This document shows positions 48,636 through 57,580 of a stretch of 64,000 nt of DNA, piece by piece. This DNA is from a virus (Duplodnaviria > Heunggongvirae > Uroviricota > Caudoviricetes). Location: the IMG/VR virus record IMGVR_UViG_3300032167_002916. One strand, 5' to 3'. Under the pieces are notes generated by a model. It was not told where the DNA came from and ran no database searches. It saw nothing but the letters and a program-made list of their open reading frames with translations. How positions within the stretch are numbered: position 1 is the first letter of the stretch; every line of letters starts with the position of its first letter. Position numbers and translations under genes: made by a program.

Positions 48636-48732
48636 GCTAACCATCGCCCGGCCTTTCATACATATTGTTTTGAAAGGGTGATGGGTTTGACTTTAACTTG
48701 GGTTTATGCTATCATTATTCAGGGTGATAGCT

Positions 48733-49638
48733 ATGTATAATCCTGAGATAAAAGAGCGGTTTTTGAATGAAAATGCTAATGCAAAATTTATCTTGTCTAT
48801 GTGCGCAAGGTACGAAGAATCGATAGGCAAGGATATTTCTCAGATGAATAAGCATGAGGCAAACTTGGTTTTGCAGTCGGCTGATTTGTGTGAGCTAAGT
48901 ACAATAGAAGGAATGTTGTCGGTTGGTAGCACTTATACAAAATGGTGTAAGGACAATAATTTGCTACCTGATATCAGTGATGGGTTTACGTCTATTGATG
49001 TCAAGGACATCGATCCTTCTGCGGTAATGGCAAAAATGTTTTTCCGTGATGAAGAAGACTTTATTCGCTCAATGCGCAAAGTTCGTGAATTTGATGAAGG
49101 CTATCCGGAGATAATTGGATTAGTTTTTGTATGGCTTGGATTGGGTTATAATGAAGCAACTACGTTAAAAGATACTTGTGTGGATCTTAAAGCGAGAGTT
49201 ATTTATGATAATGATGGTAATGTTTTGATCCATAGTTTCTCAGATGGAATCCATAGTATCTTTGAGCAATTTGTAAGATGTACGAACGGGAATCGTGGCG
49301 CATACAATGTTGTAAAAGATAGATCCTTGGATTTATTCTTGAAACGTATGTGTTCGCCGTCTTCGCCAAAAATGGGAACACCTATTTTGCCAAGGCAACT
49401 TACAAATGCAGTCAATAGGATGAACTTCCAGTACGAGGAGCTGGGGTATCCGCCTAGGTTCTCTATGTTGAACGTAAAAAGATCTGGTTCTTTATATCGG
49501 TTATGGTTAGCCGAACAAAATGGACTTGATGTAAGTGACAAAAATAATCGTGAGGAAGTGGAACGGGTTTATTGCGGTAAGAAATACCGCAATATTATCT
49601 GGCAATATAAGTATTACAAAAAGGCTTTCAATCTGTAA
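48733..49638 (+). CDS. Hypothetical (301 aa)
   Basis: Long clean ORF starting MYNPEIKERF. Confidence 0.5.
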   Translation: MYNPEIKERFLNENANAKFILSMCARYEESIGKDISQMNKHEANLVLQSADLCELSTIEGMLSVGSTYTKWCKDNNLLPDISDGFTSIDVKDIDPSAVMAKMFFRDEEDFIRSMRKVREFDEGYPEIIGLVFVWLGLGYNEATTLKDTCVDLKARVIYDNDGNVLIHSFSDGIHSIFEQFVRCTNGNRGAYNVVKDRSLDLFLKRMCSPSSPKMGTPILPRQLTNAVNRMNFQYEELGYPPRFSMLNVKRSGSLYRLWLAEQNGLDVSDKNNREEVERVYCGKKYRNIIWQYKYYKKAFNL

Positions 49639-53798: not shown

Positions 53799-53942
53799 AT
53801 GATGAATGTCGTGTACATGGTTAAGAAATCCGGTGTCAAGCTGACTAAGTCATTTGATTCTGAGTTTCTTTGCAGAAAACTTGTGAACAAGCTCAAACAT
53901 TCTAAGACGTGCGAGCTGATATCGTATCCGCTATTCAGTTAG
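53799..53942 (+). CDS. Hypothetical basic small protein (47 aa)
   Basis: AAGGAGGATGA SD. Confidence 0.35.
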   Translation: MMNVVYMVKKSGVKLTKSFDSEFLCRKLVNKLKHSKTCELISYPLFS

Positions 53943-53958
53943 CGAAGGAGGCAAAACA

Positions 53959-54129
53959 TTGGGCATTTTCCAATATGCAATCATGGCATGGTTCATGGTA
54001 ATCCTGTTGATTGCATCCAATCAGCATGGCAAACAGCTGCACGGCAGAGTGAATTTTTGGGTTACTCTTGCAATTGTTGCAGTGAATGTCGCAGCACTGG
54101 CATTTGGTGGTTTCTTCGCCAATGCATAA
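53959..54129 (+). CDS. Small two-transmembrane-helix protein (56 aa, TTG start)
   Basis: GAAGGAGG SD 7 nt before TTG; hydrophobic translation. Confidence 0.35.
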   Translation: MGIFQYAIMAWFMVILLIASNQHGKQLHGRVNFWVTLAIVAVNVAALAFGGFFANA

Positions 54130-54199
54130 TACATAGATACCCAGCAATGGTTATCTGAGGCCGGGGTTTTCTCACCCCCTTTCACTCCGGTCTCAATAT

Positions 54200-54244
54200 G
54201 GGTAGGCTTGGCAAGCGGTTACGGTTCGAGTCCGTCCCTACCCA
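54200..54244 (+). other. tRNA-like minihelix: acceptor GGGTAGG/CCTACCC plus a T-arm ACGG-TTCGAGT-CCGT, with no D or anticodon arms
   Basis: Hand fold; the 15-nt T-arm is identical to that of the phage tRNA-Asp. Confidence 0.35.
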
Positions 54245-54463
54245 CACACGGAATTCTGAAAGGCCATACTTCGCTCTTCGAGGAAGTCGTCTAGTAGGCG
54301 CTGGCTATGCGTGAATAGCAAGTCTGGGAATGCGTACCAGGCGCGGGGTAATGTCGCTGAAGTGATACATATTATCCGATTGGCGGCAATAAGTGCATCC
54401 TGGCAGAGGAGGTTAGGTTAACTGCCAACCCCGTAAAATTGAACGGTCGGTAAAGGAGGACGT

Positions 54464-55636
54464 ATGATTCATAGTTATCAAAAGCCGCTGGAAGGTAACA
54501 GAGTTGGTATCGTTTTCGGTTCCTTTGCCCCTCTTCATCAGGGACATCTTGACCTGATTATGAGAGCGAAGAAAGAAAATGATGGTGGCTGTATCGTTAT
54601 CTCCTGTGGATTGGACGGTGATAAGGGCGAGCCCTTGATGCCTCACAAAAAGCGATACAGATATGTTCGTGAGTTTTTTGCTGACGATGATCTTGTCGCA
54701 GTATATTCCATCAATGATTCTGAGTTAGGAATCGAGGCTTATCCCCAGGGTTGGTCTGGTTGGATGGAAGAATTCGAGAAAATCTGGGCAAAGGCGGTTA
54801 AAAATGCCGCTGTGTTATATTCCGATGATGGCGATAAGTGCATGGTCGGTCCAGATCGTGTGTGGTATGTCGGCGATGAGAACTACTACAATGACCTGAC
54901 GGAGCGGGGAGAGATGTGCGTGTTGGTAGACCGTACTGCTACGAACCCGATTTGTGCTACAATGATTCGCCAGAACCCTATCAAACATTGGGACAAGATT
55001 ACTACGCCTTTCCGCCGACTGTTTAGTCATAATATTCTGATCTGCGGCACTGCTTCCGAGGGCAAGACGGTTATGACTCGTGACCTCGGAAAGTATTTCA
55101 ATGCCCCCTATAGTTATGAGTACGCTCGTGAATATATGAAGGAAAGCTGTGTCGCCGACTGGGAACTGGACGGTGCGGATTACACAGCATTCCTGCAGGG
55201 TCAGTACAATCTGAACCGCAGTTTGATTAACTCTCCCGGAAACCACGGCCTGTTCTTCGCCGATTCTGATTCTATGGTTACTCGGATGTATGCTGAGTAT
55301 TATGCCAAGGATGAAACTTGCGCACTGACACAGGAGGAGTTCCAGGAAGTAGCAGTTCTGGCTGACAGTCTGACCCGCAAGTGCAGATGGGACAAGATTT
55401 TCCTGATTGCACCTCATGGTGTATATGTCGATGACCACGAACGATTCATGGCACACTCCGGCATGAAGGAACGGCGTGAACTGTTCGCAATCCTGTGTGA
55501 GAATCTGAAACATTCCGGTAACTGGGAAAAGGTTACCGTACTGACCGGAAACTACTATGAGAATTTCATGGCAGTCGTAGACTATGTAAAGGATGTGATT
55601 GCCAATGGCAAAACTGATTCTGGTATCGGGATGTAG
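54464..55636 (+). CDS. nadR: Bifunctional NMN adenylyltransferase / ribosylnicotinamide kinase (NadR-like, lacking the HTH domain)
   Basis: FGSFAPLHQGHLDLI (HxGH nucleotidyltransferase motif), ICATMIRQ (ISSTxIR-like) and the C-terminal Walker A motif ILICGTASEGKT. Confidence 0.8.
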   Translation: MIHSYQKPLEGNRVGIVFGSFAPLHQGHLDLIMRAKKENDGGCIVISCGLDGDKGEPLMPHKKRYRYVREFFADDDLVAVYSINDSELGIEAYPQGWSGWMEEFEKIWAKAVKNAAVLYSDDGDKCMVGPDRVWYVGDENYYNDLTERGEMCVLVDRTATNPICATMIRQNPIKHWDKITTPFRRLFSHNILICGTASEGKTVMTRDLGKYFNAPYSYEYAREYMKESCVADWELDGADYTAFLQGQYNLNRSLINSPGNHGLFFADSDSMVTRMYAEYYAKDETCALTQEEFQEVAVLADSLTRKCRWDKIFLIAPHGVYVDDHERFMAHSGMKERRELFAILCENLKHSGNWEKVTVLTGNYYENFMAVVDYVKDVIANGKTDSGIGM

Positions 55637-56108
55637 TGCTGTAGGGAAAACAAGGTTTGCCAGACAGTTTGCGATTCGTAATGAGTTCCTGTATCTGAGC
55701 CCGGACAACATCTATGCTCTGCTGAATGGAGACGAGAGAATCCACAAAAACAAGTTTGAAGTATGGATGACTTTGTTCAGAGCAATTCATATCGCAGAGC
55801 AGAGTGGTACTGACTGTGTGGTTGACACAAATGCCCTGTCGCACCTTGACAGAGATCAGTTTTTAGGATGGTTTCCGTCCTTTGAGCATCATCTGGTGTT
55901 TATCTCCGCATCTCCTGAGCAGAGAAAACTGAATAATTCCAGGAGAGAGCGCCAGATTCCGAACTCTGTAATGGACGCAATGACTCGGTCTGTTGAAGAA
56001 CCTAAGTGGGAATCCCTCGATAGACGGTGGAAGTCATTCGTAAGAATCAACAATGTAAACAACAATTTCATCATTGCCGAAAAAGAAGGAGACGTTTTCT
56101 ATGAGTAA
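55599..56108 (+). CDS. P-loop kinase resembling the T4 polynucleotide kinase N-terminal kinase domain (169 aa)
   Basis: ILVSGCSAVGKT Walker A motif and VVDTNAL Walker B motif. Overlaps the nadR stop, and its own stop overlaps the pnuC start (ATGAGTAA). Confidence 0.55.
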   Translation: MPMAKLILVSGCSAVGKTRFARQFAIRNEFLYLSPDNIYALLNGDERIHKNKFEVWMTLFRAIHIAEQSGTDCVVDTNALSHLDRDQFLGWFPSFEHHLVFISASPEQRKLNNSRRERQIPNSVMDAMTRSVEEPKWESLDRRWKSFVRINNVNNNFIIAEKEGDVFYE

Positions 56109-56808
56109 GGTAAAGAATTGGTTCCTCCAGAATTTCTGGACTGGTTACAGTATGGGGGAGAAGCTGTTCATGGCATTTGCCATTGCAACGCAGATCGTAG
56201 TTTTCTGCATCACTCCTGACACTCCGCTGAATATCATTGCCGGCATCGCCGGCTGTATCTCTGTCATCCTGACTGCCAAGGGACGATGGATGATGTATCC
56301 CATTGGTTTCATCCAGAACATCACCTATACGATTCTCGCATTCCAGAACTTCTTCTATGGTGAGGTAATTGAGCAGGTGTTCTACGTTGTCACCATGATT
56401 TGGGGTATGTTTGCATGGGCAAAGAACATGAACACCAACGAAGACGGTACCCAGGATGTCAAGACCCGTAAGTTTGGTATTGCTGAATGGATATGTTCTG
56501 TTATTGCAACGGTCATCGCAACATACCTGTTCGGACGAGTTCTGGTATATCTGGGTGCAGCACAGCCCTATACAGATGCAGCTACCAATGTTATGGCAGT
56601 CTTTGCTCAGATTATGATGGTCAAGCGTTATCGTGAGCAGTGGGTCTGGTGGCTTCTGATCGACCTGTTCTGCATCAAGATGTGGTGGGTCGCCGGTAAC
56701 TGGTCTATGGTTGCAATGTATGTGGTGTGGACTGCAAATTGCATCTACGGCTGGTGGAACTGGTCTAAGCTGAATAAGATTCAGAGTGAGGTTCCCGCAA
56801 ATGCATAA
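56101..56808 (+). CDS. pnuC: PnuC-family nicotinamide riboside transporter
   Basis: About 235 aa; 7-8 transmembrane segments; Trp-rich C-terminal half ending WWNWSKL is typical of PnuC; AAGAAGGAGA SD. Confidence 0.75.
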   Translation: MSKVKNWFLQNFWTGYSMGEKLFMAFAIATQIVVFCITPDTPLNIIAGIAGCISVILTAKGRWMMYPIGFIQNITYTILAFQNFFYGEVIEQVFYVVTMIWGMFAWAKNMNTNEDGTQDVKTRKFGIAEWICSVIATVIATYLFGRVLVYLGAAQPYTDAATNVMAVFAQIMMVKRYREQWVWWLLIDLFCIKMWWVAGNWSMVAMYVVWTANCIYGWWNWSKLNKIQSEVPANA

Positions 56809-56834: not shown

Positions 56835-56845
56835 GGGGGGGGGGG
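56835..56845 (+). repeat. G11 homopolymer tract 5 nt upstream of the next gene's ATG, acting as its RBS
   Basis: ccgGGGGGGGGGGcataaATG, read directly. Confidence 0.9.
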
Positions 56846-56850
56846 CATAA

Positions 56851-57225
56851 ATGGAGAGTCAAGAAAGAGAATTTCCAAAGCTTGACCTGAGCATCCTCCT
56901 CGGAGAAAGCATGTATGCAGTACATTGTGAAAACGAAGACGATGCATCGGCTCTTATTCATGCGTTAATCCAAGAGTACCCAGAAAAGTGTAAGGGTTGG
57001 GACGTCGATCACCCTAGATGGGATCTTGATTTTGTCGAGATTGAAGGTGGCATGGCTTATTACCCTGATATTAACGATATTGAGCATGAAGATTTACTCC
57101 ATGGTTCGGTAGAGTGGGCACTTGAGCACGGCTACACAGTTGTCGAGTTCGAGGATCTTCTTGGTTTTGACGAAATGATGGAAGTCGGAGATATGTCCAT
57201 CGAAGACTTGCTTGGAATAATGTGA
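56851..57225 (+). CDS. Highly acidic protein A (124 aa)
   Basis: Paralogous to the next gene (AVHCxxE...YPE...EHGYTVVEFEDLL...DLLGI). Confidence 0.5.
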   Translation: MESQEREFPKLDLSILLGESMYAVHCENEDDASALIHALIQEYPEKCKGWDVDHPRWDLDFVEIEGGMAYYPDINDIEHEDLLHGSVEWALEHGYTVVEFEDLLGFDEMMEVGDMSIEDLLGIM

Positions 57226-57235
57226 GGTGAGAATT

Positions 57236-57580
57236 GTGTTGAATATTTCAATCATGGTTGATAGACCATGTGCGGTACATTGCGATTCTGAAGAACAGGG
57301 CAAAGCGATTGTCGATGCAATTCGAGAATTCTACCCCGAGATGGCTAAGCTTTGGAACTCAGATAACAACGATCATTGGTCATACTACGGGGATAGAACA
57401 TGTTATACTCTATATGACGAATGCTACGAAGGAGGGCTTGAGCTCGATAGATTGTACTATTGCAATAGAACATTCTATGAAGATCATGGATACGAAATCC
57501 TTGAGTTCGAAGATCTCCTCACTACAGATGTTGAAATCGTCGAAAGCGATATGCTGTTGGAGGAGTTCTTAGGTATTTAA
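57236..57580 (+). CDS. Highly acidic protein B, paralog of A (GTG start)
   Basis: GAGGTGA SD 5 nt before GTG; conserved blocks AVHCDSE, FYPE, DHGYEILEFEDLL, EFLGI. Confidence 0.5.
   Translation: MLNISIMVDRPCAVHCDSEEQGKAIVDAIREFYPEMAKLWNSDNNDHWSYYGDRTCYTLYDECYEGGLELDRLYYCNRTFYEDHGYEILEFEDLLTTDVEIVESDMLLEEFLGI

Follow-up and report, generated by a model that had tools for sequence, protein, structure and literature searches.

Depletion of NAD+ is a major bacterial strategy against phages, and the reconstitution of NAD+ by phages is an active field. A locus in a metagenomic phage, in which genes for a NadR-like enzyme, a kinase and a PnuC-type transporter overlap one another, raises two questions: whether it encodes a route from external nicotinamide riboside (NR) to NAD+, and what a separate kinase does between the enzyme and the transporter. 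The window, that is, the whole 64,000-nucleotide stretch of DNA analysed, is part of a large tailed phage known from metagenomes of the gut or rumen, and the cassette shares it with portal, large terminase, tape-measure and tail genes and eight tRNAs. The host is probably a Firmicute of the class Clostridia. In the INPHARED collection, a 54-nt match to Lak phages was the only trace of a close phage relative, and metagenome and genome scans yielded just seven further loci.

A translationally coupled three-gene cassette

The cassette contains three genes:

54464-55636, + strand: NadR-like NMNAT/RNK protein, 390 aa, supported by ORF, domain and motif matches
55605-56108, + strand: AAA_33 P-loop kinase, here called Kin, 167 aa, with a PNK/PSTK-like fold
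56101-56808, + strand: PnuC-family nicotinamide riboside facilitator, 235 aa, supported by profile and PDB matches

All three lie on the same strand, with Kin between the other two, as had been proposed in a sequence-only reading of this DNA; HMM searches recovered NMNAT/RNK, PnuC and AAA_33 homology. The start of PnuC, a position backed by homologues, overlaps the Kin stop by 8 nt (56101-56108; ATGAGTAA at 56101), exactly as that reading had it. The kinase itself had been drawn at 55599-56108, overlapping both neighbours. Both overlaps stand, but the start was probably misplaced: because all 42 Kin homologues (42/42) are ∼167 aa long and begin with MA(K/R), the true start is most likely ATG 55605 and not TTG 55599, and the overlap between NadR and Kin is therefore 32 nt. 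NadR, Kin and PnuC form one translationally coupled unit with overlaps of 32 and 8 nt, and this overlapping architecture is preserved in two related loci (L003 and L004) at 60–78% amino-acid identity.

The cassette is part of a long rightward gene block that is probably early. Compared with a sister phage, it carries 113 nucleotide differences, mostly at third codon positions, and within Kin all seven differences (7/7) are synonymous; the cassette is under purifying selection. A hypervariable patch in NadR was considered as a DGR target and rejected: its differences are mostly synonymous and at third positions, and it is therefore interpreted as a recombination patch.

A predicted route from nicotinamide riboside to NAD+

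The NadR-like protein matched Pfam CTP_transf_like (E = 9.5e-8) and AAA_28 (8e-16), phrog_3462 (5e-60) and TIGR01526 (1.8e-59, with a score of 201.6 that is under the 341 cut-off). Among structures, it matched L. lactis NadR (6gye, 8e-56) and Bas30_86 (9X6F, 2e-22). It is composed of two domains:

NadR residues ∼13-175: N-terminal NMN adenylyltransferase (NMNAT) domain, with HQGH as the HxGH motif and CATMIR as the second motif
NadR residues ∼185-365: C-terminal ribosylnicotinamide kinase (RNK) domain, with Walker A GTASEGKT, Walker B FFADSD and lid DDHER

The sequences FGSFAPLHQGHLDLI and ILICGTASEGKT, to which the earlier reading had drawn attention in this protein, are both present exactly as described. 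Set against L. lactis NadR (PMC7221760) and a panel of 21 phage NadRs, the window protein has its HxGH, Walker A, Walker B and lid motifs all intact. Pfam gave no match to an HTH domain in the protein, which begins 12 residues ahead of the NMNAT domain. Its alignment to NF005988 starts at profile position 60, with positions 1-59 unmatched, and we therefore regard it as devoid of an HTH. PnuC matched Pfam NMN_transporter (PF04973) at 9e-44 and PDB 4qtn at 2e-32 (residues 7-227), and scored 135 bits against the TIGR01528 equivalog (cut-off 42.45).

Taken together, the sequence evidence makes it very likely that the cassette is an NAD+ reconstitution module of the NARP3 type. External NR would diffuse through PnuC into the cell during infection. 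There, the phage NadR would use its RNK domain to phosphorylate NR to NMN, trapping it intracellularly, and its NMNAT domain to adenylylate NMN to NAD+. The same route had been proposed from the letters alone, and it is well supported by the intact domains and catalytic motifs and by the NARP3 precedent. For the window, the NR import, NMN and NAD+ steps are predicted from homology and intact motifs; experimentally, they have been shown only for the distant Bas30_86/87 pair.

NARP3 consists of the NadR-like enzyme Bas30_86 and the PnuC protein Bas30_87 of Escherichia phage TrudiRoth (Yan et al., Sci Adv 2026, PMC13464706), a two-gene system that rebuilds NAD+ and defeats Sir2-HerA and DSR1 in experiments (PMC13464706). 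The combination of PnuC and NadR had been presented in the sequence-only reading as “a distinct solution”, a description overtaken by the literature: it was flagged in 2024 as a likely phage pathway (bioRxiv 10.1101/2024.02.11.579819), was seen in gut jumbo phages (PMC11662467), and was validated and named NARP3 in August 2026 (PMC13464706).

Like NARP3, the window cassette is phage-borne and combines an NR transporter of the PnuC type with a bifunctional NMNAT/RNK enzyme that has no HTH, and the predicted chemistry (NR to NMN to NAD+) is the same. In contrast to NARP3, NadR and PnuC are co-oriented but split by the overlapping, coupled AAA_33 kinase, and this third overlapping gene between them therefore makes the module a three-gene rather than a two-gene one. 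The window proteins are no more than distant relatives of the NARP3 prototype. The window enzymes are Firmicute-type, with L. lactis NadR matching far better (8e-56) than Bas30_86, and the cassette comes from gut/rumen metagenomic phages, not from Enterobacteriaceae phages.

Bacterial NadR/PnuC salvage (H. influenzae, Salmonella, and L. lactis; 1LW7, 6GYE, 8X7F, and 4QTN) has in common with the predicted phage route the facilitated diffusion through PnuC, the trapping by RNK, and the adenylylation by NMNAT, and the Walker A, Walker B, lid and HxGH motifs of bacterial NadR are conserved in the window enzyme. The window differs from these systems in having no N-terminal HTH repressor domain, in being phage-encoded, and in its extra stand-alone kinase. 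NARP1 (Adps+Namat) and NARP2 (NadV/NAMPT+NMNAT) (Osterman et al. 2024) are likewise phage-encoded systems that rebuild NAD+ during infection, but their substrates are ADPR and nicotinamide or nicotinamide and PRPP, their enzymes are unrelated, and they include no transporter.

We only infer an anti-defense role for the window cassette. No defense system or anti-defense gene was identified adjoining it, which would also suit a general metabolic booster that supplies NAD+ for replication (redox reactions, NAD-dependent ligase) instead of countering defense. Gut jumbo phages with many NAD synthesis and NAD-using genes have been reported (PMC11662467), and in one related locus (L013) an NAD-dependent DNA ligase lies directly upstream of Kin-NMNAT-PnuC. 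Against this, ligase genes situated 0.3–4 kb upstream of the cassette occur in L003, L004, and L006 as well as in L013, but those of the first three are ATP-dependent, and no homologue of these was found in the window; moreover, the homologous two-gene system counters Sir2-HerA and DSR1 (PMC13464706). We therefore consider a purely metabolic purpose unlikely, although supplying NAD+ for replication and countering defense are not mutually exclusive.

The middle kinase and its linkage to NAD genes

Kin is the part of the locus that deserves attention, and no description of it in an NAD-salvage context was found in the literature searched. When viral contigs were searched with Kin alone, NMNAT and/or PnuC adjoined it in 12 of 13, in four gene orders (NadR-Kin-PnuC, Kin-NadR-PnuC, Kin-NMNAT-PnuC, and NMNAT-PnuC-Kin). 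Kin is conserved, and we read it as an accessory kinase that probably serves the NR/NAD route specifically. Homologues with 41–47% identity also occur at five loci without NAD genes nearby, in one case between NrdDG and dUTPase.

Some of the Kin cassettes carry, instead of NadR, a stand-alone NadR-type NMNAT with no RNK domain, and in sister cassettes that have only this NMNAT (165–176 aa) and PnuC, Kin is the sole kinase. For the stand-alone NMNATs, the best match is to the TIGR01526 model of NadR, over its N-terminal half (∼1e-15), and the PnuCs that accompany them exceed the PnuC equivalog cut-off. At least 34 distinct PnuC lineages in IMG/VR carry NadR or NMNAT. Kin was present in 8/16 RNK-less and 5/18 RNK-containing cassettes and is not significantly commoner in the former (Fisher p = 0.29), which leaves a strict replacement of RNK by Kin in NMNAT-only cassettes unsupported; around eight distinct NMNAT-only+PnuC cassettes, the neighboring 5 kb contain no kinase. 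Compensation by Kin for a dead RNK domain was also rejected, the RNK Walker A, Walker B and lid motifs being of equal quality in NadRs with and without Kin.

Kin matched Pfam AAA_33 at 6.6e-16, and a check for fusion partners showed AAA_33 to be the only domain in its longer representatives; no phosphatase or HD domain was found in Kin. Relatives of ∼300 aa near some cassettes form a separate, lower-scoring AAA_33+HD group. The motifs of Kin are the P-loop GCSAVGKT, Asp34-x-x-Tyr37, D74-T-N76 and the lid arginines R114/R116, with G9..G14-K15-T16 and D34 invariant across the family; the aromatic residues W54, W89, F90 and W142 are invariant as well. Neither sequence nor close structural similarity placed Kin among the NadR-type RNKs (AAA_28) or with eukaryotic NRK1. 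The sequence-only reading had left the function of this kinase unassigned, which we judge to have been correct.

Kin is probably a nucleoside-type kinase. Of the substrates considered, we tentatively favor NR: Kin would phosphorylate the 5'-OH of this free nucleoside as a stand-alone analogue of RNK. An NR kinase of this kind would be redundant in the window because the RNK motifs of NadR are intact; speculatively, Kin would act there beside the intact RNK and might trap its substrate without regulation or with a different specificity. In a wider form, which we regard as possible with rather more doubt, Kin would be either an unrecognised third type of NR kinase or an NAD-directed kinase, forming with a stand-alone NMNAT and PnuC a “split NARP3” of wide distribution among gut/rumen Firmicute phages and accompanied in the window by an intact RNK.

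Kin could instead be a genuine 5'-OH polynucleotide kinase that heals DNA or RNA ends with the phage DNA ligase found nearby in relatives and came to lie in the cassette by genomic accident. Kin does match phrog_505 “polynucleotide kinase” (3e-9), and alignment with T4 Pnk (1LTQ) and C. thermocellum Pnkp (4GP6) brings together the P-loops, the catalytic Asp (D34 with T4 Pnk D35), D-T-N and the lid arginines; both this Asp and the lid arginines are conserved, and the upstream ligase genes of L003, L004, L006, and L013 would be in keeping with such a role. In T4 and C. thermocellum Pnk, however, the Asp-x-x-Arg motif is essential; its Arg (T4 R38, Cth R41) anchors the first phosphodiester, and Thr86/Thr80, a Thr that likewise binds the first phosphodiester, also belong to the motif definition (PMC3902929). 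In Kin, the Arg position is occupied by Tyr37, which is invariant in 41 family members; across 50 sequences of greater distance its conservation is still at least 90%. In addition, the position of Thr80/86 is not conserved (T/A/S, as DTN or DAN). The term “PNK-like”, used for this kinase in the earlier reading, is thus apt for the fold but not for the acceptor site, where the motif is Asp-x-x-Tyr. Kin also has no 3'-phosphatase or HD module, L011 encodes a separate AAA_33+HD enzyme besides Kin, the window keeps Kin without a homologue of the ligase, and the linkage to NMNAT/PnuC persists through four gene-order rearrangements, a context of NAD salvage and not of RNA repair. A polynucleotide kinase is on this evidence improbable.

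We consider it similarly improbable that Kin works downstream of NAD+ synthesis with the dinucleotide as its substrate, yielding NADP+ or another phosphorylated NAD derivative. Such a step, supplied by neither NadR nor a stand-alone NMNAT, would fit the similar frequency of Kin in RNK-containing and RNK-less cassettes and the intact RNK, but no sequence-level similarity of Kin to AvrRxo1 or canonical NAD kinases was detected, AvrRxo1 ranked well below the PNKs, such a step would have no evident benefit over the host NAD kinase, and this reading is reached purely by inference.

The upstream gap and implications for phage NAD+ metabolism

The region before the cassette contains the following features:

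54130-54463, + strand: non-coding intergenic gap of 334 nt, lineage-specific
54156-54195, + strand: stable hairpin with a 12-bp stem and a 16-nt loop, without a U-tract (shuffle test)
54199-54246, + strand: tRNA-like mini-element with an 8-bp acceptor-like stem and a GGTTCGAGTCC T-loop, without an anticodon arm (by sequence reading)

This gap had been read as a 300-nt structured leader, perhaps a riboswitch of the pnuC-motif or NAD+ type, and both suggestions failed. Its folding is no better than that of shuffled sequences (MFE z = -0.51), with a single stable hairpin. No Rfam family matched inside the gap even at E ≤ 10; the NAD+ riboswitch classes gave no match in 53900-54520 at that threshold, and none in the window at the gathering score. 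The gap is 99% identical in IMG/VR to the same phage only; blastn against the phage collection gave no match, and homologues are confined to the same phage lineage. In related cassettes (L003, L004, and L006) only 3–9 nt separate the upstream gene and the cassette, with no leader, and Rfam detected no NAD+ riboswitch in 10 related loci. Control of the cassette by an NAD+- or NR-sensing riboswitch, in favor of which stand the 334 non-coding nucleotides immediately 5' of the first gene and the one significantly stable hairpin, is extremely unlikely and already effectively refuted.

The hairpin folds at -19 kcal/mol, compared with -10.0 ± 2.1 for shuffled sequences (z = -4.27; 0/200 shuffles as good). 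It lies 27 nt past the stop of an upstream small ORF, is not called by intrinsic-terminator prediction, and may be an RNA-end or processing hairpin. The mini-element was called by neither ARAGORN nor the Rfam tRNA model, its fold is not significant (z = -1.1), it shares the T-loop alone with true tRNAs, and the exact pattern was found only in the same phage. A tRNA in the gap was accordingly rejected in favor of a T-loop-like remnant, and a decayed tRNA gene is the probable origin of the element. In relatives, the cassette is flanked by tRNA arrays.

The core cassette leading from NR to NAD+ is already in the literature, and the novelty of this locus is the insertion of Kin. NARP3-like modules are common beyond Enterobacteriaceae phages, occur in fused (NadR) and split (NMNAT-only) forms, and recruit the Kin family in ∼40% of cases. 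If Kin phosphorylates NR, it would represent a new family of NMN-producing enzymes, of biotechnological interest, and would account for NR trapping by cassettes without RNK. Should its substrate instead be NAD itself, phage NAD metabolism would gain a new step.

Cassette genes and their published counterparts

Three ORFs lie on the plus strand of the window at 54464-56808, as the sequence-only reading had it. The window derives from a tailed phage, with structural genes (portal, large terminase, tape-measure, and tail proteins) on the minus strand at 3-44 kb and eight tRNA genes.

54464-55636, plus strand: NadR-like enzyme (ORF 1), 390 aa
55605 (probable ATG start) to 56108 (stop), plus strand: AAA_33 P-loop kinase, Kin (ORF 2), Pfam AAA_33 6.6e-16
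56101-56808, plus strand: PnuC (ORF 3), 235 aa

Kin had been placed at 55599-56108; the gene stands, but its start is probably not TTG 55599 but ATG 55605, which follows an AAAGGA sequence, because its database homologues (n = 42) are nearly all 167 aa long and begin MA(K/R). With this start, Kin overlaps NadR by 32 nt, and its overlap with PnuC is 8 nt (ATGAGTAA, correctly described before).

ORF 1 carries both motifs previously quoted for it, FGSFAPLHQGHLDLI and ILICGTASEGKT, and HMM searches recovered the expected NMN adenylyltransferase (NMNAT) and ribosylnicotinamide kinase (RNK) homology, namely Pfam CTP_transf_like (residues 17-170), AAA_28 (residues 191-363), and the NadR NMNAT/RNK model TIGR01526 (1.8e-59; 201.6 bits, under the 341-bit trusted cut-off), together with PHROG 3462 "nicotinamide-nucleotide adenylyltransferase" (5e-60). 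The enzyme lacks the HTH repressor domain of bacterial NadR, because its alignment to the full NadR model NF005988 starts only at profile position 60. The nearest solved structure is Lactococcus lactis NadR (6gye, 8e-56), followed by E. coli NadR, the phage enzyme 9x6f, and H. influenzae NadR (about 1e-21 to 1e-23). Judged against the L. lactis enzyme, whose Walker A, Walker B, and lid span 187-195, 254-260, and 304-318 (PMC7221760), the window NadR keeps the RNK motifs (Walker A GTASEGKT, Walker B FFADSD, RWD aspartate, lid DDxxR) and the NMNAT motifs (HxGH as HQGH; second motif CATMIR versus SATQIR), all uniformly conserved over the 21 distinct phage NadRs collected. Around HxGH, 54 nt (54530-54583) match Prevotella Lak megaphage genomes with 87-89% identity; blastn of the region against the phage collection gave no other hit. 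ORF 3 is assigned to PnuC, as predicted, by homology to PF04973 (9e-44), TIGR01528 (135 bits, above the cut-off of 42), PHROG 1880, and Neisseria PnuC 4qtn (2e-32).

Compared with a sister phage (IMGVR_UViG_3300045988_147703), the cassette shows 113 nucleotide differences, the majority at third codon positions, and those in Kin are all synonymous (7/7), so that all three genes are under purifying selection. About 75 of the 113 are packed into ~360 nt (54715-55072, NadR residues ~85-203), which diverge by about 21% versus about 1% in the flanks. This stretch resembles a patch introduced by recombination from a more divergent allele; DGR-type mutagenesis was rejected because the differences are mostly synonymous.

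By homology and conserved motifs, and with distant homologues as the only experimental precedent, PnuC would admit nicotinamide riboside (NR), the RNK domain would convert NR to NMN, and the NMNAT domain NMN to NAD+, with the three genes predicted to be translated as a coupled unit. Such a route had been proposed as a distinct solution; the function is likely right, but the novelty was forestalled by a 2024 prediction and a 2026 demonstration. The 2024 study defining the phage NAD+ reconstitution pathways NARP1 and NARP2 reported that phage NadR genes usually share an operon with PnuC, possibly another NAD+ pathway (bioRxiv 10.1101/2024.02.11.579819), and in a gut jumbo phage survey of the same year pnuC was present in 68 of the 174 NAD-encoding jumbo phages, at times in a cluster with nadR or nadM (PMC11662467). 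Yan et al. (August 2026) then described NARP3, the pair of PnuC and HTH-less NadR from Escherichia phage TrudiRoth, showing NR import, conversion of NR through NMN to NAD+, and restoration of NAD+ and plating against Sir2-HerA and DSR1, and solving the enzyme structure (9X6H/9X6F) (PMC13464706). Their module comprises two genes, largely from Enterobacteriaceae phages, and the paper mentions neither a third kinase nor a riboswitch (PMC13464706). The present locus departs from published systems at its third gene, Kin, and in that gene's context.

Upstream gap and flanking sequence

A 334-nt non-coding gap (54130-54463) precedes the cassette. The sequence-only reading saw here a 300-nt structured leader, perhaps an NAD+ or pnuC-motif riboswitch; the gap is real, but its folding is no more stable than that of dinucleotide-shuffled sequence (z = -0.51), and when it was folded piecewise the hairpin at 54156-54195 alone was significant (z = -4.3). 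Rfam gave no match in the gap at gathering thresholds and, at E<=10 over 53900-54520, a sole chance-level match (E = 3.1) within the upstream small ORF; NAD+ riboswitches were also absent from ten related loci. The sister genome has the gap at 99% identity, homologue searches found no other copy, and in relatives with NadR 75-78% identical the upstream gene stops 3-9 nt ahead of the cassette. A riboswitch leader was rejected on these grounds, and the gap is not a recognisable regulatory RNA.

Within it lies a 48-nt tRNA-like mini-element (54199-54246) with an acceptor-like stem and a GGTTCGAGTCC T-arm, without an anticodon arm. Neither ARAGORN nor the tRNA model called it, its fold is not significant, and it has the T-loop alone in common with true tRNAs; we read it as probably a decayed tRNA, because in related phages the cassette has tRNA arrays beside it.

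Further features accompany the locus. At 5 kb upstream of its cassette, this phage of >120 kb carries a tyrosine-recombinase/integrase-like gene (48706-49638), with matches to the MrpR core-binding domain (4e-11) and to the integrase family phrog_5830 (4.5e-12), and a FuFi-1 RNA (Rfam RF02986; 17474-17718), located between tail genes in the structural module, scores 59.6 bits, exactly the gathering score. A G11 homopolymer (56835-56845), located after the pnuC stop codon and before the following gene (ATG 56851), is G12 in sister assemblies L001, L010, L023, and L031, reflecting either a length-variable tract or homopolymer assembly noise. Directly 3' of pnuC are genes for two tandem paralogous small acidic proteins (56851-57225 and 57227-57580; 31% mutual identity, E = 2e-14), neither with a Pfam or PHROG match; cassettes in relatives are likewise flanked by arrays of unknown ORFs of similar size.

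Genomic context of the kinase

Searching IMG/VR with Kin and its alignment as queries returned 13 contigs, and NMNAT and/or PnuC genes adjoin Kin in 12 of them. Over these and the contigs encoding database homologues of Kin, four gene orders were seen.

Gene orders around Kin (L-numbers denote related loci)
NadR-Kin-PnuC: window, L003, L004, L011, L024
Kin-NadR-PnuC: L006, L019
Kin-NMNAT-PnuC: L012, L013, L015, L016, L020, L021
NMNAT-PnuC-Kin: L014

In the latter two orders, the adenylyltransferase is a stand-alone protein of 165-176 aa, best matched by NadR model TIGR01526 over positions 2-151, its N-terminal half (about 1e-15), and the enzyme's PnuC partner exceeds the PnuC equivalog cut-off. 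No RNK domain was found within 8 kb in these split cassettes, so the AAA_33 kinase is the sole one available there to trap NR. We complemented this with an unbiased, HMM-scored census starting from PnuC across 35 dereplicated lineages.

Cassettes with Kin within 5 kb
NadR-type: 5/18
NMNAT-only: 8/16
Neither NadR nor NMNAT (L067): 0/1

Kin frequency did not differ significantly between NadR-type and NMNAT-only cassettes (Fisher p = 0.29), and eight distinct NMNAT-only cassettes had no kinase found nearby. Kin thus accompanies both forms often but not obligatorily, and it does not strictly replace RNK. Five more distant homologues (41-47% identity) have no NAD genes in the surrounding DNA examined; one (L026) sits between NrdD/NrdG and dUTPase, and three are on contigs of Oscillospiraceae MAGs recovered from the gut of sheep and goats, the only hint to the host.

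A DNA ligase gene is repeatedly seen shortly before the cassette in related loci, NAD-dependent in L013 (5660-7648) and ATP-dependent in L003 (87-1361), L004 (3215-4489), and L006 (1272-2534); no homologue of the L003 ligase was found within the 64-kb window. Upstream in L004 are also a gene of the isochorismatase family, which may encode a nicotinamidase, and one for a reverse transcriptase (1-702 and 2318-2842), and the N-terminus of a downstream ORF in L074 (6871-8118) resembles, by eye, nicotinate/nicotinamide phosphoribosyltransferase. Several related phages encode AAA_33 + HD phosphohydrolase fusions of about 300 aa a few kb from the cassette (L011 337-1263; L034 6769-7641; L049 8111-9028; L066 6029-6901). 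These are likely true polynucleotide end-healing enzymes distinct from the 167-aa Kin, and L011 has both.

Fold and candidate roles of the kinase

The AF2 model of Kin is of high confidence (pLDDT 95.5), and its closest structures are 6-phosphofructo-2-kinase and gluconate kinases, all at <=22% identity. Invariant in the family are the P-loop, D34, Y37, D74/N76, R83, the WFPxF motif, NN110-111, R114, R116, and R141-W142, with D34 aligning to the general base D35 of T4 Pnk. In RNA-repair Pnks, a shared Asp-x-x-Arg motif is essential, and its Arg, with Thr80/86, anchors the polynucleotide's first phosphodiester (PMC3902929). In contrast, Kin has an invariant Tyr in place of this Arg, a variable residue at the Thr80/86 position, and no phosphatase or HD module, suggesting a PNK-fold kinase for an acceptor without a 3' phosphodiester, be it a free nucleoside or some other small molecule.

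We infer that Kin belongs to the NR/NAD pathway. The leading, still tentative, reading is that it may be an NR (pyridine nucleoside) 5'-kinase, a stand-alone RNK analogue; this best fits the split cassettes, but the redundancy it would entail in the window, where the RNK domain is intact, speaks against it. The remaining probability beyond the readings named here falls to something else, such as a deoxynucleoside kinase, as hinted by the Nrd/dUTPase context of L026. Action on NAD or a related dinucleotide, for which AvrRxo1 is a precedent (PMC5087710, PMC5491322), is unlikely, and equally so is a genuine polynucleotide kinase whose linkage arose by chance or through the nearby ligase genes.

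The cassette as a whole may serve counter-defence, which fits the NARP3 experiments, or general NAD supply, in line with the NAD-dependent ligase immediately upstream in L013; the two roles are compatible. The locus represents a NARP3-like cassette from a Firmicute phage that includes a conserved accessory kinase and has RNK-less "split" relatives; it is of interest for the kinase family and for the diversity of fused and split forms, not for the PnuC/NadR pair itself.
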